Positions 3,093 through 52,421 of a stretch of 64,000 nucleotides of DNA are shown one piece after another (within the stretch, counting starts at the first letter, position 1; every line of letters starts with the position of its first letter). The notes below the pieces were generated by a model. That model worked only from the letters and a program-made list of their open reading frames with translations, searched no databases and had not been told where the DNA came from. The translations under genes were made by a program, and so were the position numbers. This stretch comes from Candidatus Uhrbacteria bacterium. GTDB lineage: Bacteria > Patescibacteriota > Patescibacteriia > UBA9934 > GWF2-40-263. Location: contig JACPHU010000010.1 in assembly GCA_016188495.1 (NCBI GenBank), positions 349-64,348 on the forward strand, read 5' to 3'.

Positions 3093-3141
3093 GCATATTC
3101 CCTGAGCGGAGGAACGTTGCGACGAACCGTAGTCGAAGGGT
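3093..3141 (+). repeat. Family-2 short dispersed repeat, copy a
   Basis: GCATATTCCCTGAGCGGAGG...GTAGTCGAAGGGTG; same conserved ends as copies at 18047, 31945, 44791(-), 52374. Confidence 0.7.
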
Positions 3142-3282
3142 GCAAATACAGCCTTCGACGGATTCGACCATTCGACAAGCTCATGGCAGGCAGCTCACCG
3201 CAGACAGGCTCAGGCAATAAAATACGCAGCCGTTCGATCTACTCACGACAGGCAAGCTGACGGGGTATTTACCCTGAGGGAA

Positions 3283-3311
3283 TAAAAAACGACTCTCCAT
3301 CAGAGAGTCGT
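3283..3311 (-). terminator. rho-independent terminator for minus-strand gene 3341..3913
   Basis: CGACTCTC-CATCAG-AGAGTCG hairpin followed (on minus strand) by T-run. Confidence 0.55.
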
Positions 3312-3340
3312 CACGTGAACCGGAAAGAAAAAATTCTTGA

Positions 3341-3913
3341 CTATCCCTGGTCGACCTGAGCCAGTGGTCGATATCGACACTCTCCGAACTCTACGCCCGA
3401 CGACTGAGCAAAGGTGTCCAGAAGTTTCCGGTACTCGGTCTTGATCACCGTACGGGAAGACACCCTGTCAAACTCGGTCACCCCATGCAGATAGATCACG
3501 TTGTCTGGTTCCAATTCTGTACCGCCCCACCAGATCTGTATGCGATACATACCGTCGGACATTCCCCCTATCCTTTCGATGCTCTTAGCCCCCATGTTTC
3601 GAAACTGCTTTATGAGTAGAAGTGCACTGTTCGTCATGGGTATACTGAATGAACAGTCCGACGGCGGGGTAATATTGATGCGGAACGAACCATCTAAAGA
3701 CAACGAATCCTCCGCCAAGGGCACAGTTTCCAACTCAACGAGCACTCTATCCTTCAATGACGTAAGCTTCTGGAACTCCACCTGGAATTCGGTCACGACA
3801 GGAGGAACAGTTAACCCTTCCTCTGCGAGTTGGTTAAGATATCCCAACACCGCATCGAAAGAAAATCTAAAACCATCCGCCACGTGATTACGCACACCGA
3901 GCTCTTTGGACAT
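3341..3913 (-). CDS. hypothetical protein (190 aa), first gene of the candidate island, divergent from the rest
   Basis: Long ORF with no recognizable motif; divergently oriented relative to 4091..; downstream terminator present. Confidence 0.5.
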   Translation of the reverse strand: MSKELGVRNHVADGFRFSFDAVLGYLNQLAEEGLTVPPVVTEFQVEFQKLTSLKDRVLVELETVPLAEDSLSLDGSFRINITPPSDCSFSIPMTNSALLLIKQFRNMGAKSIERIGGMSDGMYRIQIWWGGTELEPDNVIYLHGVTEFDRVSSRTVIKTEYRKLLDTFAQSSGVEFGECRYRPLAQVDQG

Positions 3914-4006
3914 GACGTTCTCTTTTTATTAAGGAGTGTTCGTAAATCCGTAGTTTTACTTCCAGGACGGCAGGAAGTTGAAAATATATTACTTTCTTCA
4001 ATTTTT

Positions 4007-4022
4007 GTCAAGTATTCTTGAC
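4007..4022. promoter_or_regulatory. 16-bp perfect palindrome GTCAAG-TATT-CTTGAC in divergent intergenic region (candidate operator / -35 overlap)
   Basis: Seen directly; lies between divergent ORFs 3341..3913(-) and 4091..6073(+); contains TTGAC -35-like hexamer. Confidence 0.35.
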
Positions 4023-4090
4023 TTTTTTACCTTCAAAATTTACACTCACCCCTCGTTCTTTTACAAGTAAAACTGCTTAAGGAGCTAAAA

Positions 4091-6073: not shown

Positions 6074-6210
6074 TGCACGCCTCAAGACCGTCCTTTTATA
6101 AAAAGGGCGGTTTTTAATAGACAAAATCAAAACTCTCTGCTAAAAACAGGGGTCGCGTAAAGACCTCTCTCTTAACGCGAAGCCCTTTCCAAACCAACGG
6201 AGCGATACCC

Positions 6211-9200
6211 ATGTCTATCACCCAAAAAAGGATGCTGAATCTTCTGTCGGGTATGACCGATGGGGAACGCAAATTCGAGTTCTTCAAATATCTCTTTGAA
6301 CGCAATGAACTGACAGAACATGACCTGTATGAACTTCTGGTAAAGTCTATTGAGCGTAATCCGAGCTATTATTTCGAACAGATCACCAAGAACGATCTGC
6401 TCAAATATCTTTGGCACCGATTTCAAGCCTATCCTGAAACGCTCGCCAGAGCACTCGTACGAGTATGTCCAGAACTGTTCTACGGCAACCATGAATGGGT
6501 CACGCGCCTTATTATTCGCCTCCAAAGCGACAAACGCCTGGGAACAGAACTGGGCATGATTACCGTGGCCCCCAAGCAGGGAACAGGCCAAGGATCCAAC
6601 CGACTGACGGTGGCAATCAATGAGAAGCTGATACAATCCATTCCTCGTGACGTACGGGATCTTGATGTGGAATGTCGTATACGGGAACTCTTGTACTGGT
6701 ATTCACGCGACCCGAAACTAGGAGCGGAATATACCCAGGAACAGATCGACAGTGCAAACCCTTATGAAGCACAGGTGTGGAATCTGGCTCGAACGCATCT
6801 GGATCACTACCTCAAAGAATCTTTCCCACAGACCGTATCAAAGATGAATGACCGACTCTTTCCGGCCATGCATGTGCGCTGGTGGCTGGATCGCTCTGCC
6901 GCGCAAACGCGCGTTCTCAACATTGGCGACACTGGAACGTATAAAACCAGTTACTCGGTCCTGGCGATGCGTCAAGCAGAAGCAAAAAAAGTACTGATCT
7001 TTTGTGCGGCTAACGCCAGAGCGAACTGGGAACAGGAACTGAAACTCTACCTACCCCATCTTCGGGCTGTCGGTCGAGTAGAAATCGTACAAAACTCCAG
7101 TCATGTTATTGCCGATAATGCAGAATTCATTATCGTAGCTTACACGACGTTGGTCCATCGTCCCGTCATCCAAATGCTCAAAGAGCAAAAAATCGATGGA
7201 ATTATTTGGGACGAAAGTCATTACGGGAAAAACGTGGTAGGAACCACTCCTGCCAAACGTGCTTTGGGAGCATTGGAAATTATTCAATCCCATGTTCCGT
7301 CTCTTAAAAAAGTGGTTGCCAATTCTGCTACACCTTGGGAAAACAGTCCGGAAGAAATAGCTGCTCTGGCGTGCATATTGCGCCCCGAGCTTTTTCCAAA
7401 CCCTCGAGAATTTCTGCGGTCGGGCGCCTACGCCAGTCCGCGATTCCTGCGAGCCTTATTTGAGACGTGCATCCTGGATATCGGGCTACATGAAGTGCGG
7501 GAACTACCCACGATTGATCCAAAACCTTGGGAAGACCTCTTTAATCCTGTCGCGATCCGGATGACCCCGCCTCAGGCAGTCCTCTATCAGCAGCTTCTGC
7601 ACCAAATCCCTGATCAAACAGATGAGGAAGATTCTCTCAAAATCATCAATGGTGTGGATGGGAGCCAGAAAGTCCGTTATCTCTTATATGCCTGCGATAT
7701 GCCTCATGTGCTCGCGCGCGTGGCAGAATACGATTGGCCCGCAGAGATCGAAGACGCGTTTGAAGACTGGAGCTTCTCGGCCAAGCTCGTGTGGCTAAAA
7801 GACCAGATCGATCAAAACATCGGAACAGCCAAAATCGTGGTGGCGTCTGGAATGTATGTTTCTGGCATCACCAAACCGATCAAAGATGATGAAGAAATCC
7901 TCTGGATCGGACGTCAGTTACGGGAATGGTATGGAGAAAAAACAGTCTTGATTTTAGATGGGGATGTACGCATTGGCGAGGATCGCAACGATCTGATCAA
8001 ACAATGGCGAACGCAAGAGTCTGCCCGAATCCTGCTGGTCTCCATGAAGACCTGTCCGGATTCGATTAATCTGTCTGTCACTATTGAAGACGATCCCACA
8101 CTCAAAGAACTCCTCGTCATCGGGTTTGCTCTGGATTGGAAACCTTGGAAACAATTCCTCGGGCGATTCTGGCGTGAGGGATTACGCATTCCTATGCGTT
8201 ACGTCTGTCCTGTGCTGCAAGGCACGATCGACGAAGCCCGCATGGAACTGAATCGCCGAAAATGGAAGTCACTCACGCGTTTCCGTTCTCGAGTTCCTCC
8301 CACAGACGAGGAATGGACGAACTATTCAAAATCAGACAGCGCCACGCTTTCAGACCTTATGCGCAGCCCAAAAGAATGGGTGAGCATCGTCAATAACGAT
8401 GTCCGAGGCATCGGCGAGGAAGCCGCGCGCTGTTATCTGGATAAAGAAAACGGTCTCTCCACTCAGGGAGAACAGTTCGCCAGAAGCTTCCTTGCCGCTC
8501 AAGAACACATGGCCTCCGGTCACATCGCCCGCCATATGCGCTACGTGTTGCAGCAAGGCCTCATTCCTGGGGGGATCCTCACGGACTCCACGCGGATTTT
8601 GGACGCGGGATGCGGACCAGCAACACTAGCGCGAACACTCCAGATGCCCGTCACAGGTGTAGATCTCAATCCTTGGATGATCACTGTGGCGCGCGAAGCA
8701 AATCCTGAGCTCACCCTCAATTGTCAGGTTGGAACCGTGAGCCAACTTCCACCTTCTTGGACAGGACGATTTCGTTTAAGTGTCTGCTCCATGGTTCTTG
8801 ATTGGACACAATTGGGAACGATCCAAGATTCACAAAGAATCAAAGCTCTTATGGAATTGATTCGAGTCACAGATCCTCATGGACTCATTTGGTTAACGTT
8901 CAATGAAAAAGCTTTAGACGAGTCACTGTTTAAAACATGGACCCAGGCTCTGAAAAAGAGCGGTTGTGAACTCTCACCACTCACGGGTTTCGTCGTCCCT
9001 GTAGAACAGGCGGGAAAAAAGAAACCAGACTTCGCTTTCTGGTCGATCGTCTTCACTGCCGCTGGACATCATCTGACTCCGTTTGACCCGTTATCTTTCC
9101 GATTCCGGTTTGAACTTGAACAGATGAAATACAAGCAGGCAAAGACAGGTTATTCTTCTAAGTCCTCAAAGGATCTAGAACCGACCTGTTATGAACGGTT

Positions 9201-9396
9201 CGTCATCAAAGATCCTGGAGCCTATGAGACATCAGACACCGTGGGCGTCCGACAAACACTCCTTACAGAACTCACACGATGGAGCAAGGTCGAAGGAAAA
9301 CCCATCAATATCTCCCAACAGGTGACAGACTTGTTTGGAGCCGATTGGAGAATCCTTCAACAGCTTCAAAAACGAGGAATTATCTCCTTCACCTGA
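6211..9396 (+). CDS. SNF2-family helicase fused to class-I SAM-dependent methyltransferase domain (1061 aa)
   Basis: Helicase motifs: I 'NIGDTGTYKT', Ia 'LIFCAANARANWEQE' (SNF2 '...NW..E'), II 'IIWDESHYGKN' (DEAH-x-x-KN), III 'SATPWENSPEEIAALACIL', helicase-C 'LLVSMKTCPDSINLSV'. MTase motifs near aa 795-930: 'ILDAGCGPATLA', post-I 'VTGVDLNPWMITVA', 'FRLSVCSMVLDW', 'LIRVTDPHGLIWLT'. Confidence 0.75.
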   Translation: MSITQKRMLNLLSGMTDGERKFEFFKYLFERNELTEHDLYELLVKSIERNPSYYFEQITKNDLLKYLWHRFQAYPETLARALVRVCPELFYGNHEWVTRLIIRLQSDKRLGTELGMITVAPKQGTGQGSNRLTVAINEKLIQSIPRDVRDLDVECRIRELLYWYSRDPKLGAEYTQEQIDSANPYEAQVWNLARTHLDHYLKESFPQTVSKMNDRLFPAMHVRWWLDRSAAQTRVLNIGDTGTYKTSYSVLAMRQAEAKKVLIFCAANARANWEQELKLYLPHLRAVGRVEIVQNSSHVIADNAEFIIVAYTTLVHRPVIQMLKEQKIDGIIWDESHYGKNVVGTTPAKRALGALEIIQSHVPSLKKVVANSATPWENSPEEIAALACILRPELFPNPREFLRSGAYASPRFLRALFETCILDIGLHEVRELPTIDPKPWEDLFNPVAIRMTPPQAVLYQQLLHQIPDQTDEEDSLKIINGVDGSQKVRYLLYACDMPHVLARVAEYDWPAEIEDAFEDWSFSAKLVWLKDQIDQNIGTAKIVVASGMYVSGITKPIKDDEEILWIGRQLREWYGEKTVLILDGDVRIGEDRNDLIKQWRTQESARILLVSMKTCPDSINLSVTIEDDPTLKELLVIGFALDWKPWKQFLGRFWREGLRIPMRYVCPVLQGTIDEARMELNRRKWKSLTRFRSRVPPTDEEWTNYSKSDSATLSDLMRSPKEWVSIVNNDVRGIGEEAARCYLDKENGLSTQGEQFARSFLAAQEHMASGHIARHMRYVLQQGLIPGGILTDSTRILDAGCGPATLARTLQMPVTGVDLNPWMITVAREANPELTLNCQVGTVSQLPPSWTGRFRLSVCSMVLDWTQLGTIQDSQRIKALMELIRVTDPHGLIWLTFNEKALDESLFKTWTQALKKSGCELSPLTGFVVPVEQAGKKKPDFAFWSIVFTAAGHHLTPFDPLSFRFRFELEQMKYKQAKTGYSSKSSKDLEPTCYERFVIKDPGAYETSDTVGVRQTLLTELTRWSKVEGKPINISQQVTDLFGADWRILQQLQKRGIISFT

Positions 9397-14050: not shown

Positions 14051-14277
14051 TTTTAACGGTTTACGTAAAACCAAACGCCCATAAAGAACTTTTAGAGTGG
14101 GTTGATGAAGATACTTTAAAAATATCAGTCACTGTGCCCCCAGAAAAAGGGAAAGCAAATAAAGCGGTGATAGAGTGTCTTGCACAGGAATTACACATCG
14201 CTAAATCAACGATCGAACTCATCCGGGGAGGCACGACGAGGATAAAACAATTTAAAATACCGACTAAGGAAACTTAG
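14047..14277 (+). CDS. DUF167 (YggU-like) family protein
   Basis: 76 aa; 'VKPNA...KISVTVPPEKGKANKAVIECLAQELHIAKSTIELIRGGTTRIK' follows the YggU/DUF167 pattern. Confidence 0.6.
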   Translation: MILTVYVKPNAHKELLEWVDEDTLKISVTVPPEKGKANKAVIECLAQELHIAKSTIELIRGGTTRIKQFKIPTKET

Positions 14278-14524
14278 TCGGTATTTTCTTGAGCGGAGGT
14301 TCATCTATTCCACCGATCGAAAAAGGATTACATCGGACAATCCGCTGGAAAGTCAGAAAACTTCCTTTAAAGACCCCGTGACTTTTAATGCAAAGATATC
14401 CGTATTCAGAACAGGATGGATAAAAACGACAATAACCATCGGGGAAAAAACGACTCAACGGACCATGATCCAGAGAAAATATCCTTTGATAAAGACGAAT
14501 CATGATCAATAAAAACGTTCTCAT
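14264..14524 (-). CDS. yidD: membrane protein insertion efficiency factor YidD
   Basis: 'RFYPSCSEYGYLCIKSHGVFKGSFLTFQRIVRCNPFSIGGID' = YidD Cys motif. Confidence 0.85.
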   Translation of the reverse strand: MRTFLLIMIRLYQRIFSLDHGPLSRFFPDGYCRFYPSCSEYGYLCIKSHGVFKGSFLTFQRIVRCNPFSIGGIDEPPLKKIPTKFP

Positions 14525-14865
14525 ACAGAAAGAACTCGGGCTTTTTTTAAACTGTACACCACCTGTTTTGAAATTTCTTCAAAATCCTTTCCAATGGCTT
14601 CTTTTTTTAAAAAAAAGAGAACATCGTATCCTGGCTTCATGTGTGGAAGATAGGCTTGGATAACCGCGCGCACTTGTCGCTTTAGGCGATTGCGCACAAC
14701 GGCTTTCTTTGACACTTTTGTTCCAACCACCACAGCAAAACGAGAAACGGAAAGCTTATTTGGTTGAAATTTCATTCCTAGCCAGATACCAAAGACGCTC
14801 TTGCCACGGGCAAAGAGCGCTTTGATATCTTTTTCGTGTCTGAGTCGATACTCAGAAGAAAGCAT
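14521..14865 (-). CDS. rnpA: ribonuclease P protein component
   Basis: 'RLRHEKDIKALFARGK...' and basic 'VVRNRLKRQVRAV' RnpA motif; positioned between rpmH and yidD. Confidence 0.85.
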   Translation of the reverse strand: MLSSEYRLRHEKDIKALFARGKSVFGIWLGMKFQPNKLSVSRFAVVVGTKVSKKAVVRNRLKRQVRAVIQAYLPHMKPGYDVLFFLKKEAIGKDFEEISKQVVYSLKKARVLSV

Positions 14866-14868
14866 AGA

Positions 14869-15012
14869 TTAAGAAGAAACGGTAAGGCGTTTTCGGCCCT
14901 TTGCACGACGACGTTTGAGAACGTCCTGACCTGTAGAACTCTTCATACGAGCTCTGAATCCATGAACTTTGACTCGTTGTTTCTTTTTTGGTTGAAACGT
15001 ACGCTTTGACAT
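14869..15012 (-). CDS. rpmH: 50S ribosomal protein L34 (not in ORF track, 47 aa)
   Basis: Reverse translation [47 protein letters not shown], canonical L34; 3 nt upstream of rnpA. Confidence 0.9.
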
Positions 15013-15083
15013 AAAAACAAGACAATTACGATCTAAACCATTAGGACAATAAACATTTCTTAAAGCAAAAAGATGCTAACACA

Positions 15084-15143
15084 CTATCCACAATCGATCA
15101 ACTAAATCTCGTATGACCTGACCGCTTGCCCACATGTGGATAA
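15084..15143. promoter_or_regulatory. DnaA boxes upstream of dnaA (CTATCCACA at 15084-15092; perfect TGTGGATAA at 15135-15143)
   Basis: Direct match to TTATCCACA consensus (8/9 and 9/9 reverse). Confidence 0.6.
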
Positions 15144-15208
15144 TTAGTCTAAACTACAGACCACGTGTAACTTTTGAGAAGGAAACTATCTCATTCATAC
15201 TCGATGCT

Positions 15209-16615: not shown

Positions 16616-16902
16616 ATCCACAGAGTCTTCCACAGATTATCCTAATAATATTTAAGAGGATAAACCTCGGTATAACGTTGTTCATAAGAGGGTGAACGAT
16701 CTGAATAAGTTTAGGAGAACATTCTGAAGTCATATCTATCCGCTTTCTATTCACGCTGTTCCCCTCTAATAGTACACAAATCCACACCCTTTTTTAAAAC
16801 TGATTTTAGCTAAAAAAAGGACTTATCCCTGCTGTCCACACCCCTTATTACTACTTCTTTATTTATTATCTATTAATTTATTAATAAAGAACTCAGGTTG
16901 AT
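16613..16902. other. candidate oriC between dnaA and dnaN (weak DnaA-box-like nonamers plus AT-rich DUE)
   Basis: AAATCCACA at 16613 and about 16775; AT-rich 'TTATTACTACTTCTTTATTTATTATCTATTAATTTATTAATAAAG' at about 16846-16890. Confidence 0.45.
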
Positions 16903-18039: not shown

Positions 18040-18046
18040 GGAATTT

Positions 18047-18093
18047 AATATTCCCTGAGCATAGCGACCAGTGGAAGCGAAGTCGAAGGGGTA
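18047..18093 (+). repeat. Family-2 short dispersed repeat, copy b
   Basis: AATATTCCCTGAGCATAGCGACCAGTGGAAGCGAAGTCGAAGGGGTA. Confidence 0.7.
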
Positions 18094-18102: not shown

Positions 18103-18134
18103 CAAAAACCGAGAGATAGACTCTCGGTTTTTGT
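18103..18134 (+). terminator. rho-independent terminator after dnaN
   Basis: AAAAACCGAGAGATAGACTCTCGGTTTTTGTT. Confidence 0.7.
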
Positions 18135-18190
18135 TATCTTATGAACAAGAGTATTGTAAATAAACACTCTTTTGCCTTATTGGATTCCTT

Positions 18191-24174: not shown

Positions 24175-24306
24175 GAAGTTTTATGCTATGAATGACGAAA
24201 CTCGATGAGATTTGCGTGAACGGGCTGGCAGCCCCATCAGACGTACCCAAACGTACGTCTGATGGGGTGCCTGGGCGCCCGTGAACGCAAAGATCGCGAG
24301 TTTCGT
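24175..24306 (+). repeat. Family-1 structured palindromic element, copy B, ending 3 nt before tRNA-Cys
   Basis: 132-bp imperfect palindrome; outer arms GCTATGAATGACGAAACTCG / CGAGTTTCGTCATTCATAGC perfect; subterminal ATGAGATTTGCGTGAACGGGC vs GCCCGTGAACGCAAAGATCGC asymmetric. Confidence 0.75.
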
Positions 24307-24309
24307 CAT

Positions 24310-24384
24310 TCATAGCTATGGCCACGTGGCGAAGTGGGAACGCAGGGGTCTGCAAAACCTCGATGAGTCGGTTCAATCCCGACC
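24310..24384 (+). tRNA. tRNA-Cys (anticodon GCA)
   Basis: Cloverleaf folded by hand: acceptor GGCCACG/CGTGGCC, anticodon stem GGGGT/ACCTC with loop CTGCAAA, T-arm GTCGG-TTCAATC-CCGAC, encoded CCA. Confidence 0.8.
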
Positions 24385-31944: not shown

Positions 31945-31995
31945 GAATATTCCCTGAGCCTGCCTGCCGTGAGCGTGTCAAACGGTCGAAGGGTC
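31945..31995 (+). repeat. Family-2 short dispersed repeat, copy c
   Basis: GAATATTCCCTGAGCCTGCCTGCCGTGAGCGTGTCAAACGGTCGAAGGGTC. Confidence 0.65.
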
Positions 31996-32128
31996 AAAAT
32001 TCGATGAAAGTAAAACGTTCAAAATTGGATGAGTTGCGCCGGGCTGGAGGAAAAAAATCCGTGAGTCGTAGCCAAATCTACGGCGAACGGATTTTTTCCC
32101 GAGACCCAAGCAGATCGCGGATAATTAT
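31996..32128 (+). repeat. Family-1 element, degenerate copy F (tandem to copy C)
   Basis: Left CAAAATTCGATGAAAG..., right ...AAGCAGATCGCGGATAATT, internal hairpin AAAAAAATCCGT...ACGGATTTTTTC. Confidence 0.45.
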
Positions 32129-32134: not shown

Positions 32135-32261
32135 GAGATCTCTTCAAAAATCGATGAGATTTCGTTGAATGGGGAAATCAGTGATAGAGCCGTATTCAAA
32201 ATACGGTGACGAACCGATGGGGCCCCATGAAACGAAAGATCGCGATTTTTGAAGAGATCTC
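32135..32261 (+). repeat. Family-1 structured palindromic element, copy C, ending 3 nt before tRNA-Ser
   Basis: Outer arms GAGATCTCTTCAAAAATCG / CGATTTTTGAAGAGATCTC perfect 19 bp; subterminal ATGAGATTTCGTTGAATGGGG vs CCCCATGAAACGAAAGATCGCG. Confidence 0.75.
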
Positions 32262-32264: not shown

Positions 32265-32357
<93 letters not shown>

Positions 32358-32388
32358 CGACTACCGTTGTATTGTTTAGAACGGTAGT

Positions 32389-32416
32389 CGAATGCCCTGA
32401 GCCTGTCGAAGGGCAG
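32389..32416 (+). repeat. Family-2 repeat, truncated copy d
   Basis: GAATGCCCTGAGCCTGTCGAAGGGCAG, ends conserved, centre minimal. Confidence 0.5.
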
Positions 32417-32489
32417 AAGTGTAATGGTATACAACCGCTCATGGTCGTTGACCATTCAAATTAGAGAATCGTGCTCTTTAACTCCGTGT

Positions 32490-32753
32490 ATGCAAAACTT
32501 GTTTTTTGTCTATATTCTAGAATGTTCTGATGGAAGTTATTACGCGGGTTCAACAAATGACTTGGAGGAAAGGTTAAAACGGCACAATACAGGTGAAGCA
32601 TCAGAATGGATAAGTAAACGTCGACCGATAAAAATGATCTATCAATAAGGATATGTCTCATTACTCTCTGCACGACAACGAAAGGAACAGATAAAAGGCT
32701 GGTCTCGAAAAAAGAAAGAAAATCTTATCAATGGTGTTTGGAAAAAAATATAA
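32490..32753 (+). pseudogene. GIY-YIG nuclease family protein (UPF0213/YhbQ-like, 87 codons) interrupted by in-frame TAA at 32646-32648
   Basis: MQNLFFVYILECSDGSYYAGSTNDLEERLKRHNTGEASEWISKRRPIKMIYQ*GYVSLLSARQRKEQIKGWSRKKKENLINGVWKKI; both halves in the same frame match the GIY-YIG and C-terminal 'QIKGWSRKKKENLI' pattern. Confidence 0.65.
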
Positions 32754-39522: not shown

Positions 39523-40896
39523 ATGAAGACGCTTTGGCGCAATCTCTCCCTTCTTTGCCTCATGCTCATGCTTGTCGGAGCTGGCTGTGGTGGCAATACG
39601 CAAGCACAAACGCTTGCCACAAAACCTGTCACTCTGACCATCTGGCGGGTGTTTGACGATGACAGCACCTTCTCAAACATCATGAGTTCTTACCAGGCTC
39701 TTCATCCGAATATCTCTTTTAATTACCGAGAACTCCGGTACAACGAATACGAGGACGAACTCCTGCGGGCGTTTGCCGAAGGAGAGGGACCGGATATTTT
39801 TTCCATCCATAACACCTGGATCGGAGAATATAAAAGTTTGATCAAACCCTTGCCCAATTCATTAAAGATTCCCTATTCAGAAACCAGAGGAACGATCAAA
39901 AAAGAAACCGTGTACACCATTCAGGAAGAACCCACTCTTTCCCAAAGAGCCCTCAAAAACGATTACGTAGATGTCGTTGTGCAAGATGTCCTGCGCTCCT
40001 ACAGAGCGAGTGCAAAAGCCGATGTGGAAGAACGCATTTTTGCCCTCCCTTTGTCTGTGGATTCCCTCGCTCTCTATTACAACAAAGACCTCTTAAACGC
40101 CGCAGGAATTCCGGAACCCCCTTCGACATGGACGGAATTTCAAGACAACGTAGGCAAGCTCACAAAAATTGGTGTCGACGATAAGATTATTCAGGCAGGC
40201 GCTAGTATCGGAACAAGCAAAAATGTGGAACGAGCGTTTGATATCCTTTCCATTTTGATGATGCAAAACGGAACACAAATGACAGACAGTCGATATCAAG
40301 CCACCTTTGGTCAGGAAACAGAAGCAGGATTCCTGGCTTCAGAAGCGACTCGTTTTTATACAGATTTTGCCAATCCGCTCAAAGCGGTCTATACCTGGAA
40401 TGCCGATCAGCCCGATTCGTTTGATGCCTTCGTTAAAGGCAACACGGCATTCTTTTTTGGATATAGTTATCATGACGCGTTTATTCGCACAGCGAATCAA
40501 AAACTCAATTACGCTATCACTGCTCTTCCTCAAATTGATGGAGGGAAAACTGTTAATTACGCCAACTATTGGGTTGAAACGGTTGCCAAGTCTTCCAACG
40601 CCGGGGATTGGGCCTGGGATTTCGTGCAGTTTGCCGCTGATAAGGACCATGTCGGATCCTATATAAAGGCGGCAAAAAAACCCGCCGCCCTGCGCTCCCT
40701 CATCAGCGCTCAATTGGAAGACGAATTGCTGTCCATCTTCGCTGGTCAAACCCTCACGGCGCGTTCCTGGTACATGGGCAATAATGCCAACGTCGCAGAA
40801 GAAGCCTTTTTGGATCTGATCGACGCTTATCTCAAAGGAAGCGATCAAGAACGAGCTCTCAAAGACGCTCAAAATAAAGTGAATCAAACTCTATGA
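39523..40896 (+). CDS. ABC-transporter extracellular solute-binding lipoprotein (family 1, sugar-type), no adjacent permease genes
   Basis: Lipoprotein signal 'LVGAGCGG'; size and composition of SBP family 1. Confidence 0.55.
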   Translation: MKTLWRNLSLLCLMLMLVGAGCGGNTQAQTLATKPVTLTIWRVFDDDSTFSNIMSSYQALHPNISFNYRELRYNEYEDELLRAFAEGEGPDIFSIHNTWIGEYKSLIKPLPNSLKIPYSETRGTIKKETVYTIQEEPTLSQRALKNDYVDVVVQDVLRSYRASAKADVEERIFALPLSVDSLALYYNKDLLNAAGIPEPPSTWTEFQDNVGKLTKIGVDDKIIQAGASIGTSKNVERAFDILSILMMQNGTQMTDSRYQATFGQETEAGFLASEATRFYTDFANPLKAVYTWNADQPDSFDAFVKGNTAFFFGYSYHDAFIRTANQKLNYAITALPQIDGGKTVNYANYWVETVAKSSNAGDWAWDFVQFAADKDHVGSYIKAAKKPAALRSLISAQLEDELLSIFAGQTLTARSWYMGNNANVAEEAFLDLIDAYLKGSDQERALKDAQNKVNQTL

Positions 40897-41618
40897 GAAA
40901 ATCTCTCTTTCTCATTGCTCTTTTCTTCCTCACAATCTTGCCTCAAACGGGATTCGCCTATAATTCCAGAATTTGCCAACAAAGCAGTGTCTGTTTGGAA
41001 AAAGAAGTGGGAGTCTTTATGCAAGGAATCTCTAAAGGTTGTGGAAACTCTGGGGATTGTACGTTGGCAGACATCATGACTGTATTCGTGAACGTGGGAA
41101 ATTACGTGGTTGGAATCATTGGAGGAATTGTTTTATTGATGTACGTTATCGGAGGCTTCTTCATGCTTATTTCAGGAGGTAACAGTGAACGTGTGAAAAA
41201 AGGAAAGCAATATATGACGATTTCAACCGTGGGATTGCTCATTGTCATGTTTTCCTACTTAGGAATTTATGCGTTACGAGGGGTTCTCCAATACGGTTCT
41301 GTCGCGCTCACGGATGCCGAAAACGAATATGTCGCCTGTTCAGGACCGACGGTGGAAGGAAAATCCTGCGACCTAAATTCAACCTGTACCAACGGAGGAT
41401 ATACGTGCGAGTCTCTGTGCCGGCAAAATCACCCCCTCTCTACAACTTCAACAACCCAGGATACGACGATCACCGAATACTACGACTGTGTGGATAGGAA
41501 ATCGACTGCGAGTTCAAGCGAAGAAGGGGGGAACGTCTACTACGTTGAAAGTAGTTGTGAAAAAAATCTCTGTCCTGGAGATGTAGACGTCCAATGCTGT
41601 CAGCTCAAACGCAGATAA
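40893..41618 (+). CDS. VirB2/TrbC-like (T4SS-pilin family) small membrane protein paralogue 1, with Cys-rich (15 Cys) C-terminal extension
   Basis: Shared core 'VLLMYVIGGFFMLISGGNSERVKKGKQYMTISTVGLLIVMFSYLGIYA' aligns with the other four paralogues. Confidence 0.6.
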   Translation: MRKSLFLIALFFLTILPQTGFAYNSRICQQSSVCLEKEVGVFMQGISKGCGNSGDCTLADIMTVFVNVGNYVVGIIGGIVLLMYVIGGFFMLISGGNSERVKKGKQYMTISTVGLLIVMFSYLGIYALRGVLQYGSVALTDAENEYVACSGPTVEGKSCDLNSTCTNGGYTCESLCRQNHPLSTTSTTQDTTITEYYDCVDRKSTASSSEEGGNVYYVESSCEKNLCPGDVDVQCCQLKRR

Positions 41619-41654
41619 TCCTTTCACTCTTTTTCTTTCTAGAAATTTTGAATC

Positions 41655-41999
41655 ATGAACTCACCTATGCATAAACGAATTCTATTGCTGTTCTACCTTT
41701 TTTTCATCATTCCTCACACGACCCTTGCCGCTGAGCTGACAAACCCGCTCTATACGACAGATATCCGAGATGTGATCGGGCGTATTATCCAAGCGGTTTT
41801 AGGTGTGACAGGAGCGGTCGCTCTTCTCATGTTCGTCTACGGAGGATTTCTCTGGCTTATTTCCGGCGGCGAAACGGAAAAAGTAAAAAAAGGAAAAGAT
41901 ACCATGAAGTGGGCGATTCTGGGATTAGCCGTCATCATCGGTGCTTACATGATTGTCAGCACCATCATCAATGCCCTAGAAAAAGGAACGGTTGCTTAA
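41655..41999 (+). CDS. VirB2/TrbC-like pilin-family protein paralogue 2
   Basis: Signal peptide plus 'ALLMFVYGGFLWLISGGETEKVKKGKDTMKWAILGLAVIIGAYMIVS'. Confidence 0.6.
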   Translation: MNSPMHKRILLLFYLFFIIPHTTLAAELTNPLYTTDIRDVIGRIIQAVLGVTGAVALLMFVYGGFLWLISGGETEKVKKGKDTMKWAILGLAVIIGAYMIVSTIINALEKGTVA

Positions 42000-42146
42000 C
42001 CCGTGTGGATATCTTAGTACTCCAAACACATAAATTTCGGTAAAATAGAATTGAATACAATATTAACTCAACTAATTAGCATTCTCTTTTACTTTTCCTT
42101 CTTTGACTGACAAAGAAGAGAGACCAGTACGAAAGAGGTAACGTTT

Positions 42147-42608
42147 ATGTCAAACATTTTATCTAAAAAGCGTGTCGGTTATTTCCTTGGAGCTCTCATC
42201 GCTTTTTCTTTCGGAGCCACTGCCCTCTTGGGTGTCCATAACGTGCACGCACAAGCGCTCACATCCGACGAGCTCTTTGGAGGAACAGCCACGGGAGATG
42301 AATTTGCCTCAACAGCCGGTTTGGGAGAAGCGGACCTTGTGGATACGATCGGTTCTATTATTCGTGTCGCTTTGGGATTTTTAGGAGTGATTGCCGTGGT
42401 GATTATCCTCTTGGGTGGATTCAAGTGGATGACTGCGGCTGGAAATGACGACAAAGTAAAGGAAGCGAAGAAACTTATTTTTTCAGGAATTGTCGGTTTG
42501 GTAATCGTTCTCTCTGCCTATGCTATCGCAAGCTTCGTGATCAATTCGCTTGTTACAGCAACCGCTGGTAGTACTGAAGAAGAAACAACCACAACAACCT
42601 CCAGCTAA
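42147..42608 (+). CDS. VirB2/TrbC-like pilin-family protein paralogue 3 (Thr-rich C-terminus)
   Basis: 'VVIILLGGFKWMTAAGNDDKVKEAKKLIFSGIVGLVIVLSAYAIASFVI'. Confidence 0.6.
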   Translation: MSNILSKKRVGYFLGALIAFSFGATALLGVHNVHAQALTSDELFGGTATGDEFASTAGLGEADLVDTIGSIIRVALGFLGVIAVVIILLGGFKWMTAAGNDDKVKEAKKLIFSGIVGLVIVLSAYAIASFVINSLVTATAGSTEEETTTTTSS

Positions 42609-42689
42609 TTTCGCCAAAATTTCTTTCGTTTCAAACCCCTGTCGGATACGACGGGGGTTCGCACAAGGGCATGAATCGCGTGCCTTTAT

Positions 42690-43136
42690 GTGAACCCACT
42701 TCAACTTATGACCTTAAAACGTTCAGCTGGTTTAGGAATAATGCTCGTAATCTTTCTTTGTTCGTTTCTGATCGTTTTTGCTCCTCACCCAACATTGGCT
42801 CAAACAGCAACATCTACCATTTCACAGGGATTGCAAAATACCGCCGGCACAACCTATGACACCAACCTGACAGCAACGGTCTTTATAGGAAATCTCATTC
42901 GAGCCCTTATCGGAGCCACAGGTATTCTCTTTCTGGTCATTACGGTGTATGCAGGAATTCTGTATATGACAGCGGCAGGAGACGATACGAAAATCAAAAA
43001 GGCAAAAAGCATGCTCACCAGCTCTGTCATTGGCATCATCATCGTCGTTGGAGCCTATGCCCTCACAAGCTATGTTGTCAGTGCTCTTTCTACGGCAGCT
43101 GTACCAACAACAACAGCACCGGAAAAAACTGATTAA
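42690..43136 (+). CDS. VirB2/TrbC-like pilin-family protein paralogue 4
   Basis: 'LVITVYAGILYMTAAGDDTKIKKAKSMLTSSVIGIIIVVGAYALTSYVV'. Confidence 0.6.
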   Translation: MNPLQLMTLKRSAGLGIMLVIFLCSFLIVFAPHPTLAQTATSTISQGLQNTAGTTYDTNLTATVFIGNLIRALIGATGILFLVITVYAGILYMTAAGDDTKIKKAKSMLTSSVIGIIIVVGAYALTSYVVSALSTAAVPTTTAPEKTD

Positions 43137-43172
43137 TCTTTTATCAATTTCAACTCAATCTATTCATCTCTT

Positions 43173-43559
43173 ATGAAAAATCTTTCTCTCAAGGTAACCG
43201 TCTGGCTCTCTGTCCTTCCGACCCTCTTGCTTCCAGCCGCTGTTTTTGCTCAACTCTCTGATGCACAAACAGATCTTGCAGAAGTCGGTGAGGCTATTGG
43301 AACCGACGCCACGAATAACGATCTTCCAACGCTTATCGGTAACATCATCTCTGCTCTTCTTTCCGTTCTCGGTATCATTTTCGTCGTTTTGGTCGTGTAC
43401 GCCGGTTTCCTCTACCTCACCGCGGCGGGTGACGATACAAAAGTCAAAAAAGCAAAAACGCTTCTTACTCAATCCATCATCGGTCTGGTGATCATCGTCG
43501 CCGCCTACGCGATCAGCGCCTTCGTGATCGATGCTCTTGTCGAAGTAACAGGAACCTAA
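43173..43559 (+). CDS. VirB2/TrbC-like pilin-family protein paralogue 5
   Basis: 'VVLVVYAGFLYLTAAGDDTKVKKAKTLLTQSIIGLVIIVAAYAISAFVI'. Confidence 0.6.
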   Translation: MKNLSLKVTVWLSVLPTLLLPAAVFAQLSDAQTDLAEVGEAIGTDATNNDLPTLIGNIISALLSVLGIIFVVLVVYAGFLYLTAAGDDTKVKKAKTLLTQSIIGLVIIVAAYAISAFVIDALVEVTGT

Positions 43560-44264: not shown

Positions 44265-44266
44265 CT

Positions 44267-44790: not shown

Positions 44791-44839
44791 ATACCCCTTC
44801 GACTCCGGTTTGTCGAACAAACCTCCGCTCAGGGAATAT
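44791..44839 (-). repeat. Family-2 short dispersed repeat, copy e (minus orientation), in 5' leader of lipoprotein gene
   Basis: Reverse complement CATCATATTCCCTGAGCGGAGGTTTGTTCGACAAACCGGAGTCGAAGGGGTAT. Confidence 0.7.
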
Positions 44840-44977
44840 GATGATCACCACCACTGCTATCTGATTTGAAGGAACAAATAAGGCATTGAGGTAGAGGGGC
44901 TACTTCTATTTAGAAAATGAAAGTAACACATCAATGCCTTATTTATCCCTTCAAATCATACAAAAGAAGAAAAGACT

Positions 44978-45640: not shown

Positions 45641-45768
45641 AGACTTCTGCAAAACTCGCGATCTTGCCTTTCACGGGCGCCCGTTGACCCCGTTCTCCCT
45701 ACTCTGAGTAGGGTTCTCGGGGCTCAACAGCCCGTTCAAGGCAATCTCATCGAGTTTTGCAGAAGTCT
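45641..45768 (-). repeat. Family-1 structured palindromic element, copy E (minus orientation), overlapping the 3' end of ORF 45671..46969
   Basis: Outer arms AGACTTCTGCAAAACTCG / CGAGTTTTGCAGAAGTCT perfect 18 bp; inner sequence close to copy A/B subfamily. Confidence 0.75.
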
Positions 45769-46969: not shown

Positions 46970-46972
46970 AGA

Positions 46973-50376: not shown

Positions 50377-51446
50377 AAGAATTTTTTATCTGTTTTTTGA
50401 TGAGTACAGCCGCAGTTTTTCCTGCGGCTGTTTTCGCACAAGAGGTTTCACCACGCGACGCGTTGACATTGATTTATCAAAGTCGTCCGGATTTGCAACG
50501 TGCGTTTGATGCTCAAACAGGTTTGGCGATCGCAGGCACCAACGCAGGGTTTCTATTGGATTTGGAAGATTGGGCAACGCAATACGGATGGATGGAACAT
50601 CCTGAATTGAAGATCTATGCTCCAACACAGGGGGATGGGGTTCCTGTGCGGACGAGCGCAGAAGAGATCGAATCTTCTATCCAAGCGCAGGCATATCTGG
50701 TGATGGATCGCTCCACCGGAAAAATATTGACGGTAAAAAATGAGAATAAAGTGTGGCCTATCGCGAGCCTCACCAAGCTCATGACCGCTTCGGTTGTTTT
50801 GGATCATGATGTTCTGTTAAATAAAACAGCTTCGGTGCTCAACACGGACAATGTGGGGGGTGCGCGATTGTATGTGAATGACGGAGATGAATTTACGGTG
50901 GAAGATCTTTTTTATGCCACGCTTGTAGGTTCAGCCAACAACGCAGCGAACGCTCTTGCTCGAACCACTGGATTATCTCGCGCGGAATTTGTGCAAGAGA
51001 TGAATGCGCGTGCAAAGGTATTGAATCTTGTCCGTACACAGTATGTGGATCCTACAGGAATCGAATTAGGAAACGTTTCAACGGCTCGTGAGATGGCTCG
51101 GGTGGCGCAAATGGCTTTTTCTCAAGACTCTCTTCAGAGATTCACTACAACAGCAACAAAATATATTAGCGATCTTTCTCAAGGGACAACAAAGAAAATG
51201 ACAAATACGAATTGGATGCTTTGGAAACCAGAATATGATGATTTGTATGTGACCGGCGGAAAGACCGGATATCTGATTGAATCGGGATGGAACCTTGTGG
51301 TTTCGCTTCGTCCGATGGAGGGAGATGCAGATAAAGAACTGTTAATCGTTCTGTTTGGTGCAGACTCTCGCGGAGATTCCTTTATCAATGCTGATCGTCT
51401 TGCTACTTGGGCCTGGGAGACCCATGAATGGCAAAAAGTGCAGTAA
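50367..51446 (+). CDS. D-alanyl-D-alanine carboxypeptidase (peptidase S11)
   Basis: SxxK 'ASLTKLMTA', SxN 'SANNAAN', KTG 'GGKTGYL'. Confidence 0.8.
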   Translation: MGIKEFFICFLMSTAAVFPAAVFAQEVSPRDALTLIYQSRPDLQRAFDAQTGLAIAGTNAGFLLDLEDWATQYGWMEHPELKIYAPTQGDGVPVRTSAEEIESSIQAQAYLVMDRSTGKILTVKNENKVWPIASLTKLMTASVVLDHDVLLNKTASVLNTDNVGGARLYVNDGDEFTVEDLFYATLVGSANNAANALARTTGLSRAEFVQEMNARAKVLNLVRTQYVDPTGIELGNVSTAREMARVAQMAFSQDSLQRFTTTATKYISDLSQGTTKKMTNTNWMLWKPEYDDLYVTGGKTGYLIESGWNLVVSLRPMEGDADKELLIVLFGADSRGDSFINADRLATWAWETHEWQKVQ

Positions 51447-51462
51447 CGTTTTGATCTAGAGA

Positions 51463-51502
51463 AAAAAATAAGCGGGAGCTACGGCTCCCGCTTATTTTTT
51501 TC
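51463..51502. terminator. bidirectional intrinsic terminator
   Basis: AAAAAAATAAGCGGGAGCTACGGCTCCCGCTTATTTTTTTC between convergent genes. Confidence 0.7.
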
Positions 51503-52041
51503 TATGTCATTTTTTTCGCTCGTTTTTCTTGTACGAGTCGATTGATGAGTTGTTTTACTTCCTCAGGGTTGTCTATACTTTTAAAGTGAAACCGGCTTTT
51601 TTCTCCTGCGGTTTGTACGAAGACGTTCCCGTAAGTAAAGATCGTCTGGAGGATCCCGCGGATTTCGGCCGTTGTATCTTGGACAGAAGACAGATCTAGT
51701 TCTGAAGCGGTCCGATTGAATAATCCATTTTGCTCGATACTGATAATGCGTTCATTAGTGATAATCCAAGTATCCAGATAGTAATCCGTGAATTCCAGGA
51801 ACGCAAAGAGCCAAATTGAGAGGAAATAAATGCTTCCCAAAATGACCAGAAACGGTCCTATAACGGGATGATCCAGCCATGTTTGAATTGTGTCCCAGAA
51901 ATACCAGGATCCTAAAAGAGGAATTCCTGTCAGGATAGAAAAAGCGGTCACGATCGTAAGGATGGCAAACCATTGCCGGCGCAGAAATGAAACAACATGT
52001 TCATTGGGTCGTTGGTTTGGAAGCTGATGGAGGTTCATCAT
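51502..52041 (-). CDS. membrane-anchored bacterial PH-domain (bPH_2/DUF304) protein
   Basis: Two TM helices then 'WIITNERIISIEQNGLFNRTASELDLSSVQD...NVFVQTAG' bPH_2 pattern. Confidence 0.55.
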   Translation of the reverse strand: MMNLHQLPNQRPNEHVVSFLRRQWFAILTIVTAFSILTGIPLLGSWYFWDTIQTWLDHPVIGPFLVILGSIYFLSIWLFAFLEFTDYYLDTWIITNERIISIEQNGLFNRTASELDLSSVQDTTAEIRGILQTIFTYGNVFVQTAGEKSRFHFKSIDNPEEVKQLINRLVQEKRAKKMT

Positions 52042-52322
52042 AAGGAAGGAAATAAATCTTCATTATAATAATTTACCGTTTTGTCTAAAGAGATTGGGTA
52101 ACTCCAGTCATATTCCATCAGCAGAAAGACGGATCCCGCTACCAGGATAATCGTTCCTCCTGCAAAGATTGTCACGATCAGATACATCCCGAATCCGTAT
52201 ACGCCATATCGAATGAGATGATAGACGTTAAACAGAGCATAGAGCACATAAAAGAGCATATAGGCTCCGTAGACAATCAAAAAAACAGCGATCGGAATAT
52301 TGATGTCTGGAAAATCAAACAT
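52038..52322 (-). CDS. small membrane protein (94 aa)
   Basis: Three hydrophobic helices; overlaps downstream gene start by 4 nt (operon). Confidence 0.5.
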   Translation of the reverse strand: MFDFPDINIPIAVFLIVYGAYMLFYVLYALFNVYHLIRYGVYGFGMYLIVTIFAGGTIILVAGSVFLLMEYDWSYPISLDKTVNYYNEDLFPSL

Positions 52323-52373
52323 AGTAAGTAAATTGTATCACAAAATCTTCAGATAGTTTGGCTCATGAGATTC

Positions 52374-52421
52374 GAATATTCCCTGAGCGAAGCGACCCAT
52401 GGGAGCGGAGTCGAAGGGGTA
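52374..52421 (+). repeat. Family-2 short dispersed repeat, copy f
   Basis: GAATATTCCCTGAGCGAAGCGACCCATGGGAGCGGAGTCGAAGGGGTA. Confidence 0.7.

Follow-up and report, generated by a model that had tools for sequence, protein, structure and literature searches.

The six copies of a short repeat dispersed through the window (the whole 64-kb stretch of DNA analyzed here) are, with a probability of roughly 70%, an "Ssn-related motif" (SRM), the hairpin elements cognate to a small GIY-YIG nuclease that has a single domain and is of the Ssn type. The Ssn family with its SRM hairpin repeats, for which SsnA and the NTS repeat of Neisseria meningitidis are the prototype, was first described in 2025 (Chenal et al. 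2025, Nat Commun 16:2388, PMC11893778). Matched by architecture, the pair of repeat and nuclease is a member of this recently recognized system and not a new kind of element.

A dispersed hairpin family with a covarying stem

The pattern CCCTGAGC-N(0-30)-GTCGAAGGG matched exactly six times in the window and never in 100 dinucleotide shuffles, confirming that the six-copy family described in the first-pass annotation is real. All six copies lie between ORFs or RNA genes, five on the plus strand and one on the minus strand (Table 1), so the intergenic placement in both orientations and the dispersed, REP-like behavior noted at that stage are likewise supported. The elements are 21 to 50 nt long, with a distal stem that varies set on a conserved base, ATT-CCCT-GA-GC-GRA ... 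GRA-G(U)C-GA-AGGG.

Table 1. Repeat copies and associated features in the window. Copy spans (3093-3143 etc.) are the pattern match plus the conserved 5′ flank.
Feature	Position	Strand	Basis	Context
Pattern match sites	3100-3140, 18053-18090, 31952-31993, 32395-32413, 52381-52418	+	exact pattern	
Pattern match site	44795-44834	-	exact pattern	
Copy 1, long form	3093..3143	+	covariance model 42.9 bits, E 8e-16	100 nt 3′ of the H+-pyrophosphatase stop codon (H_PPase ORF 947-2992)
Tentative degenerate inverted partner of copy 1 (CCTTCGAC ... GCTCAGGCAAT)	3152..3218	-	read from sequence	extra words TTCGAC and GCTCA
Tentative collapsed mini-copy (ATTCCCTCAGGGTA on the minus strand)	3269..3285	-	model 16.6 bits, E 2.8e-4	both element ends, without the interior
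Copy 2, long form, GCGACC/GGAAGC stem	18046..18093	+	model 54.4 bits	begins 7 nt 3′ of the dnaN stop codon, upstream of a separate terminator-like hairpin (18104-18135)
Copy 3, second subtype (GAGC-CTGCCTGCC...GG-TCGAAGGG)	31945..31996	+	model 31.8 bits	near-identical design in Uhrbacteria LBWG01 (L033)
Perfect 14-bp hairpin ATTCGACTACCGTT...AACGGTAGTCGAAT	32355..32393	+	sequence	directly 3′ of tRNA-Ser
Copy 4, minimal short form GCCCTGAGC-CT-GTCGAAGGGC	32394..32414	+	model 14.6 bits, E 0.002	after tRNA-Ser, 75 nt upstream of the window GIY-YIG gene, same strand
Small single-domain GIY-YIG nuclease gene, Ssn-like, 87 codons, pseudogene	32490..32753	+	tblastn, Pfam	
Copy 5, long form, 7-bp GGTTTGT/ACAAACC stem	44792..44841	-	model 59 bits	between two minus-strand ORFs, its end 21 nt before the ATG at 44770; identical center in Uhrbacteria LBWG01 (L079)
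Copy 6, long form, GCGACC/GGGAGC stem	52374..52421	+	model 62.9 bits	end 2 nt from the ruvB stop codon; antisense to ruvB (52424-53506, minus)

The hairpin is an inverted repeat with an invariant base helix and a covarying distal helix. Across genomes, compensatory double changes were found in all seven pairs of the distal helix, and none of 500 shuffles reached the observed score. In the distal helix 90.5% of cells were paired, and pairing overall was 95%, compared with 34 to 52% in slid controls. The base pairs and the 5′ flank were invariant, with TATT preceding CCC in all 32 aligned copies. The earlier proposal that the center is under selection for structure is thus upheld by covariance analysis. 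The folding energy of single copies was unremarkable relative to shuffles, both as RNA (z 0 to -1.8) and as DNA (z +1.1 to -1.2; nearest-neighbor); the case for a conserved stem is the covariation across genomes and not folding energy. Hammerhead, K-turn, and sarcin-ricin readings of the core, compared by eye with their consensus sequences, did not fit.

A stem had also been claimed for the center of every copy. It is clean in the copies at 18046, 44792, and 52374. In copy 1, however, the distal stem is decayed (GGAACGT/ACGAACC, with two A.A mismatches), and the center of copy 3 (GTGAGCGTGTCAAAC) looks, from its sequence, like a nested degenerate short element. Beside copy 1 the covariance model gave a weak match at 3164-3220 on the minus strand (11 bits, E 0.078), and copy 1 and its degenerate partner may tentatively be read as a head-to-head doublet. 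Copy 4, previously described as truncated, is instead the minimal short form (CCCTGAGC-CT-GTCGAAGGG), which elsewhere accounts for 53 of 204 elements and is the commonest form among the matches listed. The 14-bp hairpin that precedes it recurs as a module with a covarying stem before a short element after tRNA-Ile in another locus (L102).

The family is not confined to its source genome but spans many phyla. The same core was found in more than 104 genome stretches, mostly from Patescibacteria, and also in Proteobacteria, cyanobacteria, Lentisphaerae, Methylomirabilis, and Actinobacteria. In relatives, stretches of 8 kb hold several copies each, and a Sphingomonas replicon has 14 in 50 kb. The copies at 18046, 44792, and 52374 are near consensus (54 to 63 bits) and 92 to 98% identical to copies in other phyla-level lineages. 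Elements in viral contigs (21 stretches) were nearly all short forms, and no GIY-YIG gene was found near them. A literature search with element DNA strings returned nothing relevant.

As to the setting of the repeats, the window covers the origin region (rnpA, dnaA, and dnaN, with the cumulative GC-skew minimum near 16 to 20 kb) and contains an array of T4SS-pilin paralogs, and many of its ORFs have no Pfam match. Two repeat families are common to the window and "Ca. Uhrbacteria GW2011_GWF2_39_13." Taken together, the shared repeats, the pilin array, and the ORFs lacking a Pfam match suggest a Patescibacteria-like genome. Exact matches to window proteins came only from Logan assemblies of SRR12113418, SRR12113419, and SRR12113422.

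Association with a small GIY-YIG gene

In an all-against-all comparison of ORFs from loci selected by the element, a recurrent ORF of about 88 amino acids proved to be a GIY-YIG protein (PF01541, E 1e-16 to 4e-18). The gene was bracketed by inverted element copies in six loci (L018, L034, L036, L060, L078, and L098), and an element lay directly beside it in seven of eight loci with homologs of this subfamily. The association was also present in an independent sample of 80 metagenome loci picked by the GIY-YIG protein alone. Correctly oriented elements reached densities of 4.09 per kb upstream and 2.59 per kb downstream within 150 nt of the gene, compared with 0.10 to 0.26 per kb further away. 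In the 73 loci whose flanks were long enough, a copy in the correct orientation lay no more than 160 nt away upstream in 46, downstream in 25, on either side in 55 (75%), and on both sides in 16; control positions 500 nt further out gave 1 of 59 and 0 of 56. The association does not by itself tell which partner depends on which, and the GIY-YIG gene could instead insert preferentially at preexisting hairpins.

The GIY-YIG proteins are 85 to 89 amino acids long, with PF01541 as the sole domain. Their nearest solved structures are the UPF0213 proteins BH0048 (E 1.7e-16) and EF2693 (E 1.9e-14), which may represent a sister group to Ssn. NCBIfam holds no naming model for the protein and gave no match above cut-off. 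Literature searches on GIY-YIG with REP or MITE, or on COG2827/UPF0213/YhbQ, returned nothing on an association of repeat and gene.

The window has its own copy of the gene, which matched element-flanked homologs by tblastn (E 8e-18) and PF01541 (E 8.7e-14). An in-frame TAA at 32646-32648 replaces a conserved Glu codon (..VYLEEY.. in homologs, ..MIYQ*GY.. in the window), and the gene is therefore inactivated; homologs in other loci are intact. An element (copy 4) is present on the upstream side only, with none downstream, and its 5′ flank (GTCGAATG) differs from that of the long copies (ATATTCCC). Matching the window protein to one 5′-flank subtype was dropped because it is about equally distant (40 to 56% identity) from all sampled homologs. 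An intact nuclease gene for the five long ATATTCCC copies was not found within the 64 kb. With the one linked nuclease gene inactivated, the window copies would either be serviced by a gene elsewhere in the genome or be relics.

Comparison with Ssn and a proposed mechanism

SsnA is a 94-amino-acid single-domain GIY-YIG protein that binds its hairpin repeat only as single-stranded DNA, and only one strand of it, and cuts upstream of the hairpin (PMC11893778). Cleavage persists when the hairpin is split into two oligonucleotides, so that the loop is dispensable (PMC11893778). The Ssn clade was equated with CDD cd10448 (GIY-YIG_unchar_3) or with SsnA homologs at E < 1e-10 (PMC11893778). The system described here shares with Ssn/SRM a single-domain GIY-YIG protein of about 90 amino acids, a gene bracketed by inverted hairpin repeats of 20 to 50 nt, probably with many further intergenic copies (six in the 64-kb window), and a conserved nonpalindromic 5′ flank that orients the repeat; as in dRS3/NTS, the hairpin base starts with ATTCCC. 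The flanking fractions are similar: in the published NTS-ssnA-NTS architecture, at least one SRM lies nearby in 71% of homologs and on both sides in 42% (PMC11893778), and the metagenome loci gave 75% for either side and 22% for both. The 5′ flanks form a graded series from CGTCATTCCC (Neisseria NTS) through tGTCATcCTGAGC (metagenome loci) to ATATTCCCTGAGC (window).

The two systems also differ. The published SRM pattern, HGTCWYN(0-2)YYVSBRHN(0-5)WNVSBRGN(0-2)RNCYNB (PMC11893778), recognizes Neisseria NTS but had 0 matches in the window; it gave one chance-like match in the 80 GIY-YIG loci and one match in the 50 kb of Sphingomonas. Where SRMs have a simple stem of 7 to 9 bp, the hairpin here combines a base of 4 bp with G.A/A.G steps, a bulged T, a GRA/GRA loop, and a distal stem whose length varies from 0 to about 50 nt. 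The window 5′ flank is ATATT, while that of NTS is CGTCAT. Unlike active Ssn genes, the window gene is a pseudogene. Finally, one core is common to very distant phyla, including Patescibacteria, a name with 0 occurrences in the main text of Chenal et al. 2025 (PMC11893778).

The full unit is (ATTCCCTGAGC..GTCGAAGGG), a nuclease gene of about 88 codons, and (CCCTTCGAC..GCTCAGGGAAT); the dispersed singletons and head-to-head doublets would be gene-less copies of the unit ends, as REPs are to RAYT genes. A mechanism can be drawn by analogy with the characterized Neisseria, N. elongata, N. wadsworthii, and Wolbachia enzymes. When DNA becomes single stranded during replication, transformation, or conjugation, the purine-rich strand would fold into a CCCT/AGGG base helix, followed by G.A/A.G steps of non-Watson-Crick type, a G-C/C-G step from which a T bulges, the GRA/GRA internal loop, and a distal stem whose sequence is free. 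The nuclease is predicted to bind the conserved hairpin base plus the conserved 5′ flank (ATATT in the window, tGTCAT in relatives, CGTCAT in Neisseria) and to nick the purine-rich strand a few nucleotides upstream of the hairpin. The distal stem-loop would only have to pair, and for that reason it would vary and covary. By the same analogy, the enzyme may act in the spread of the repeat or in restricting incoming single-stranded DNA.

If the Ssn reading is correct, the repeat offers a large branch of small GIY-YIG nucleases a candidate substrate defined by its sequence, and each of these enzymes might be a new site-specific cutter of single-stranded DNA. The Ssn-type system would then reach into Patescibacteria-like genomes, include an abundant, cross-phylum motif class missed by the published SRM pattern, and account for repetitive intergenic sequence of a very common kind. 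The same element sequence may also lie behind part of the spurious repetitive ORFs of many bacterial genomes.

Alternative explanations

A bolder proposal, which we consider possible but distinctly less probable, is that the CTGAGC..TCGAAG hairpin moves autonomously together with the small GIY-YIG gene, as a unit of hairpin, nuclease, and inverted hairpin that crosses very distant phyla and seeds gene-less singletons and doublets. Such a unit would parallel REP/RAYT with a GIY-YIG enzyme as the driver, or would be a homing system whose target is folded single-stranded DNA. Recognition would fall to the conserved tandem G.A core, the hairpin apex would be a tolerant slot for inserted hairpins or even further copies, and the published search pattern would have overlooked a second, pan-bacterial SRM class.

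It is rather unlikely that the window copies are inert relics of a once-active element whose nuclease has died in this lineage, leaving copies without present function or mobility. The nonsense codon at the conserved Glu of the sole linked GIY-YIG gene fits this account, as does the degeneracy of copy 1, copy 3, and the pieces at 3152-3285. Spacing from dnaN to the next gene was also identical in three population contigs from separate samples, with no presence/absence polymorphism among these three. Against it, the near-consensus state of the copies at 18046, 44792, and 52374 and their identity to copies in distant lineages point to recent activity or constraint, and the rest of the genome could hold an intact gene. 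The relic account bears on whether the element is active today, not on what it is, and can hold alongside the Ssn explanation.

Slightly less probable still is a structured RNA, in which a transcribed hairpin with tandem G.A pairs would act on mRNA as a 3′-end stabilizer, an RNase or protein site, or a leader regulator. In its favor are the strong covariation of the distal stem and the conserved purine-rich internal loop, the latter typical of RNA motifs. Of the six copies in the window, five run in the sense direction of the adjacent gene, copy 2 lies in the dnaN 3′ untranslated region before a terminator, copy 5 lies in a 5′ leader, and secondary mRNA effects are known for REPs (PMC3733652). 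However, the orientation statistics called for in the first-pass annotation showed no bias relative to genes across 204 elements: 35 were sense and 31 antisense to co-directional flanking genes (24 and 25 for long forms). Equal placement speaks against any RNA role tied to one strand, for instance the marking of transcript 3′ ends. Rfam at the gathering score matched only tRNAs in the window, and at E up to 10 a search with copy 6 gave nothing relevant (one meaningless snoRNA match). Both the lack of orientation bias and the lack of an Rfam match fit a DNA-level element. Folding energies no better than those of shuffles also weigh against an RNA element; the gene-flanking copies are mutually inverted, so that only one per pair could be sense, and characterized Ssn enzymes do not act on RNA (PMC11893778). 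Individual copies might still have a secondary effect at the RNA level.

Very improbable is a classical REP/REPIN family whose mobilizing RAYT (a tyrosine transposase of the IS200/IS605 type) would be encoded in another part of the genome: the elements do have REP hallmarks (short intergenic hairpins, singletons and head-to-head doublets, often near gene 3′ ends; PMC3733652), but no Y1 or other transposase domain was found in the 50 window ORFs scanned (64 kb of genome), no transposase-like ORF cluster recurred in about 700 kb of element-bearing loci, where the recurrent neighbor was the small GIY-YIG nuclease and not a RAYT, the GTAG tag is absent from the 32 aligned copies, and the motif is common to several phyla while REP/RAYT pairs are species specific. 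The parallel with REP/RAYT is one of organization: a single-copy nuclease-type gene flanked by inverted hairpin repeats, dispersed gene-less singletons and doublets, and, by analogy, expected recognition of a folded single strand. The fold is GIY-YIG instead of an HUH/Y1 transposase, and strand-transfer activity is not known for Ssn.

The repeats also resemble the CGTC-tagged REPs, among them dRS3 of Neisseria and RPE-4 and RPE-6 of Rickettsia (Di Nocera et al. 2013, BMC Genomics 14:522, PMC3733652). Those too are short intergenic palindromes, mostly in head-to-head dimers, found in several phyla, often near gene 3′ ends, and without a transposase. They are marked by a CGTC/TGTC tag, perfect 8- to 9-bp stems opening with A-T pairs, loops of 4 to 5 nt, and a CCA tail, all of which the window elements lack. 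Relatives, though, carry tGTCAT.

Hairpin repeats in the window and their covariation

The six repeats in the window (copies 1 to 6) share two conserved ends, ATATTCCCTGAGC..GTCGAAGGG, around a variable centre, and the first-pass annotation's account of them as such a family was confirmed by inspection of the sequences. The end pair occurs no more than 30 nt apart at six sites in the window and at none in 100 dinucleotide-preserving shuffles. Conserved parts of the window copies are the 5′ flank and base, ATATT-CCCTGAGC, and the 3′ end, GTCGAAGGG-GTA; one named type of copy is the ATATTCCC-type. As had also been claimed, all six are intergenic, flanked by ORFs or RNA genes. Copy 4 had been called truncated, but it represents the family's minimal short form.

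The long form can be written ATT-CCCT-GA-GC-GRA-[stem-loop]-GRA-G(T)C-GA-AGGG. Pairs were counted on an alignment (A3) that combines window copies with copies of other genomes, 32 distinct ones in all. The base helix is invariant in A3 save for one C-G to G-C swap, and the distal helix has changes on both sides in 7/7 pairs. Overall, 95% of the cells were paired, versus 34 to 52% when the partner column was slid, and the covariation score was reached by 0/500 shuffles. The proposal that selection acts on a stem in the variable centre was thus borne out. The stronger claim, that every copy has a central stem, held in part: the distal pairs covary across A3, but in copies 1 and 3 the central stem is poor. 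The folding energy of single copies, whether as RNA or as DNA, was not better than that of shuffled sequence. A covariance model built from A3 recovered all six window copies (62.9 to 14.6 bits), as well as two weak, degenerate pieces adjoining copy 1. The repeat family is real, and its structure is under selection.

On our reading of the alignment, the positions between the helices would be purine opposite purine (G.A, A.G, GRA/GRA), forming non-canonical steps; in one window subfamily, tandem G.A is read even within the distal stem. A second subtype, to which copy 3 belongs, carries an asymmetric insert (YTGCCTGCC) on its 5′ side, and its centre, in the window and in another Uhrbacteria stretch (L033), looks like a nested short element.

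A 16-nt direct repeat, CAAGCTGACGGGGTAT, surrounds the entire copy 1 cluster of about 166 bp, which consists of copy 1 and a degenerate inverted partner; a collapsed mini-copy, ACCCTGAGGGAAT, follows the bracketing repeat. The direct repeat could be a duplication from insertion or recombination. No insertion polymorphism was found in three population contigs, in which the spacing from dnaN to the next gene was identical.

Repeats and genes located in the window
Feature	Coordinates	Strand	Context
Copy 1	3093-3143	+	3′ of H+-pyrophosphatase gene
Copy 2	18046-18093	+	7 nt past dnaN
Copy 3	31945-31996	+	3′ of 736-aa ORF
Copy 4	32394-32414	+	3′ of tRNA-Ser
Copy 5	44792-44841	-	flanked by two minus-strand ORFs; directly before an ATG
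Copy 6	52374-52421	+	antisense to ruvB; end 2 nt from ruvB stop codon
Direct repeat CAAGCTGACGGGGTAT	3071-3086, 3253-3268		around copy 1 cluster
GIY-YIG match	32490-32747		75 nt downstream of copy 4
tRNA-linked composite	32355-32470		after tRNA-Ser
~110-nt repeat	189-260	-	
~110-nt repeat	24188-24309	-	adjoins tRNA-Cys at 24320
~110-nt repeat	32147-32249	+	adjoins tRNA-Ser at 32265
~110-nt repeat	about 54425-54457		adjoins tRNA-Leu at 54340-54425
~110-nt repeat	45652-45757	+	
Origin-region gene order	14264-18039		rnpA, dnaA-sized ORF, dnaN
rnpA	14521-14865	-	
dnaA-sized ORF	15134-16615		named by size
dnaN	16903-18039		
1061-aa ORF	6211-9396		SNF2-related and methyltransferase domains
147-aa ORF	24763-25206		matches baeRF_family12 / Host_attach
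Five tandem paralogous small ORFs	40893-43559		

Distribution of the family in other genomes

Species-representative genomes, scanned with ATTCCCTGAGC-N(10-40)-GTCGAAGGG, gave at least 104 stretches, with a few tens of chance matches expected by our own estimate. The matches listed cluster in particular genomes, mostly of Patescibacteria (Uhrbacteria, Portnoybacteria, Saccharibacteria, Doudnabacteria and unclassified members), and also include Methylomirabilis, Lentisphaerae, cyanobacteria, Actinobacteria and MAGs labelled Gammaproteobacteria; a few that fall within long ORFs seem to be fortuitous. Copies in 'Ca. Uhrbacteria GW2011_GWF2_39_13' and in a Lentisphaerae MAG share 92 to 98% identity with some of those in the window.

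When the pattern was relaxed, the DNA fetched for the matches listed yielded 204 elements, the commonest single form being a short one, CCTGAGC-YTG-TCGAAGG (n = 53), in which the pair immediately flanking the core covaries (c..g, g..c, t..a). The short form is tightly arrayed in tandem, repeating every 32 to 36 nt, in some genomes and viral contigs (L008:1639-1735, L097:1505-1590 and several sites in L206), and stuttered 5′ halves, with CCCTGAGC every 12 to 14 nt, are found among these sites, which suggests local amplification or slippage. The motif is rare in viral contigs.

It is unlikely that the elements act as RNA. No Rfam family matches them, and among the matches listed those between co-directional genes were 35 sense versus 31 antisense (24 versus 25 for long forms) on a crude ORF-based map. 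That map puts 67 of the 204 elements inside ORFs, of which some are probably spurious, and a few of the elements match by chance. Elements were also found between convergent and between divergent genes.

A GIY-YIG gene beside the elements and its likeness to Ssn nucleases

When all ORFs of the element-bearing loci among the matches listed were clustered, the standout recurrent cluster comprised ORFs of about 88 aa abutting elements; glycosyltransferase-like proteins, typical of those genomes, also recurred. The ~88-aa ORFs encode single-domain GIY-YIG proteins (PF01541, E values of 1e-16 to 4e-18), whose nearest solved structures are UPF0213 proteins. Six loci (L018, L034, L036, L060, L078 and L098) have one and the same layout, with the gene between inverted elements: the upstream element, in the gene's orientation, stops 8 to 15 nt short of the start codon, and the inverted downstream element starts 1 to 13 nt past the stop codon. 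By tblastn against all fetched DNA, the subfamily was found at eight places, with an element adjoining in 7/8; in the viral contigs fetched, a GIY-YIG gene was never beside the motif. The window contains one of these eight, in which a TAA replaces a Glu conserved in all homologs, so that this gene is a pseudogene. The 5′ flank of the short copy 4 beside it differs from that of the five long copies. No intact nuclease gene is present in the 64-kb window. The suggested link to a REP-associated tyrosine transposase (RAYT) was not upheld, as no transposase was detected among 50 scanned window ORFs and the gene tied to the elements is of the GIY-YIG type.

The association was also seen in an independent sample of 80 metagenome loci picked by alignment of the GIY-YIG protein alone. 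A generalised motif, CTGAGC-N(0-60)-[TG]CGAAG, occurred at 4.09 per kb within 150 nt upstream in the gene's orientation and at 2.59 per kb, inverted, within 150 nt downstream, versus 0.10 to 0.26 per kb at greater distance. Among the 73 loci with enough flank, a correctly oriented copy was present upstream in 46, downstream in 25, on either side in 55 and on both in 16; control windows 500 nt further out gave 1/59 and 0/56. Many of these loci have the 5′ flank tGTCAT ahead of CTGAGC. In a cultivated case, a replicon of Sphingomonas parapaucimobilis, an annotated 'GIY-YIG nuclease family protein' lies between CTGAGC-GAA-GTCGAAG hairpins, of which there are 14 in 50 kb, mostly as inverted pairs.

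Neisseria meningitidis SsnA, the prototype of the Ssn nucleases, has 94 aa with GIY-YIG as its only domain and belongs to CDD family cd10448; it binds the NTS hairpin repeat (CGTCATTCCCGCGMAVGCGGGAATCYRG, which contains dRS3) only as single-stranded DNA and on one strand only, cuts upstream of the hairpin and is inactive on double-stranded DNA and RNA (Chenal et al. 2025, PMC11893778). Cleavage persists when the hairpin is split into two oligonucleotides, and Ssn homologs of three other species cleave their own repeats (PMC11893778). The typical arrangement is NTS-ssnA-NTS; a degenerate Ssn-related motif (SRM) pattern places a repeat near 71% of homologs and on both sides in 42% (PMC11893778). 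The Neisseria system reduces transformation by DNA that carries NTS, and the authors liken it to REP/RAYT (PMC11893778). CGTC-tagged REPs, dRS3 included, had been catalogued as lacking a dedicated transposase (Di Nocera et al. 2013, PMC3733652).

Our elements resemble Ssn/SRM in architecture, protein type and association statistics; as in dRS3/NTS, the hairpin base starts ATTCCC, and the 5′ flanks grade from CGTCAT via tGTCAT to ATATT. Because these features agree, we read the window repeats as probable cognate hairpins of an Ssn-type nuclease. In contrast, the window motif does not fit the published SRM pattern at all, so an SRM search would miss this class of repeat. The family is probably a member of the recently described Ssn nuclease/hairpin-repeat kind; its motif is distinct and its distribution unusually broad. 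Recognition and cleavage would rest on the conserved flank and base as a module; for the distal stem, pairing alone would be enough, which would fit the split-hairpin result. From the likeness to SsnA we infer binding, cleavage and the strand cut, together with any role in copying the repeats or in limiting incoming single-stranded DNA.

tRNA-linked sequences and other window features

A composite consisting, in order, of ATTCGAC-[covarying 7-bp stem extension]-GTCGAAT, a short element and AACCGCTCATGGTC.T.GACCA follows tRNA-Ser in the window and tRNA-Ile at L102:2934-3050, in a MAG labelled Gammaproteobacteria; in L102 it recurs behind a partial tRNA 5′ end. Some metagenome GIY-YIG loci directly adjoin tRNA genes, downstream of the gene in L124, L125, L150 and L167 and upstream in L138, L144, L160 and L172.

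A separate family, with repeats about 110 nt long (AAACTCGCGATCTTTGCGTTCACGGGCGCCC..hairpin..GGGC..CAGCCCGTTCACGCAATCTCATCGAGTTT), also has conserved ends and a central hairpin that varies among copies. It is probably the 'first' dispersed family of the first-pass annotation. Besides the window copies, one lies at L079:5261-5382, and the family is common to 'Ca. Uhrbacteria GW2011_GWF2_39_13' (81 to 89% identity).

The replication origin probably lies within the window, since the cumulative GC-skew minimum falls near 16 to 20 kb. Many ORFs near the 1061-aa and 147-aa ORFs had no match at all in the Pfam scan. Two of the five tandem ORFs match Pfam T4SS_pilin, one above the curated cut-off (E = 6e-9) and one 0.1 bit below it (E = 7e-6).
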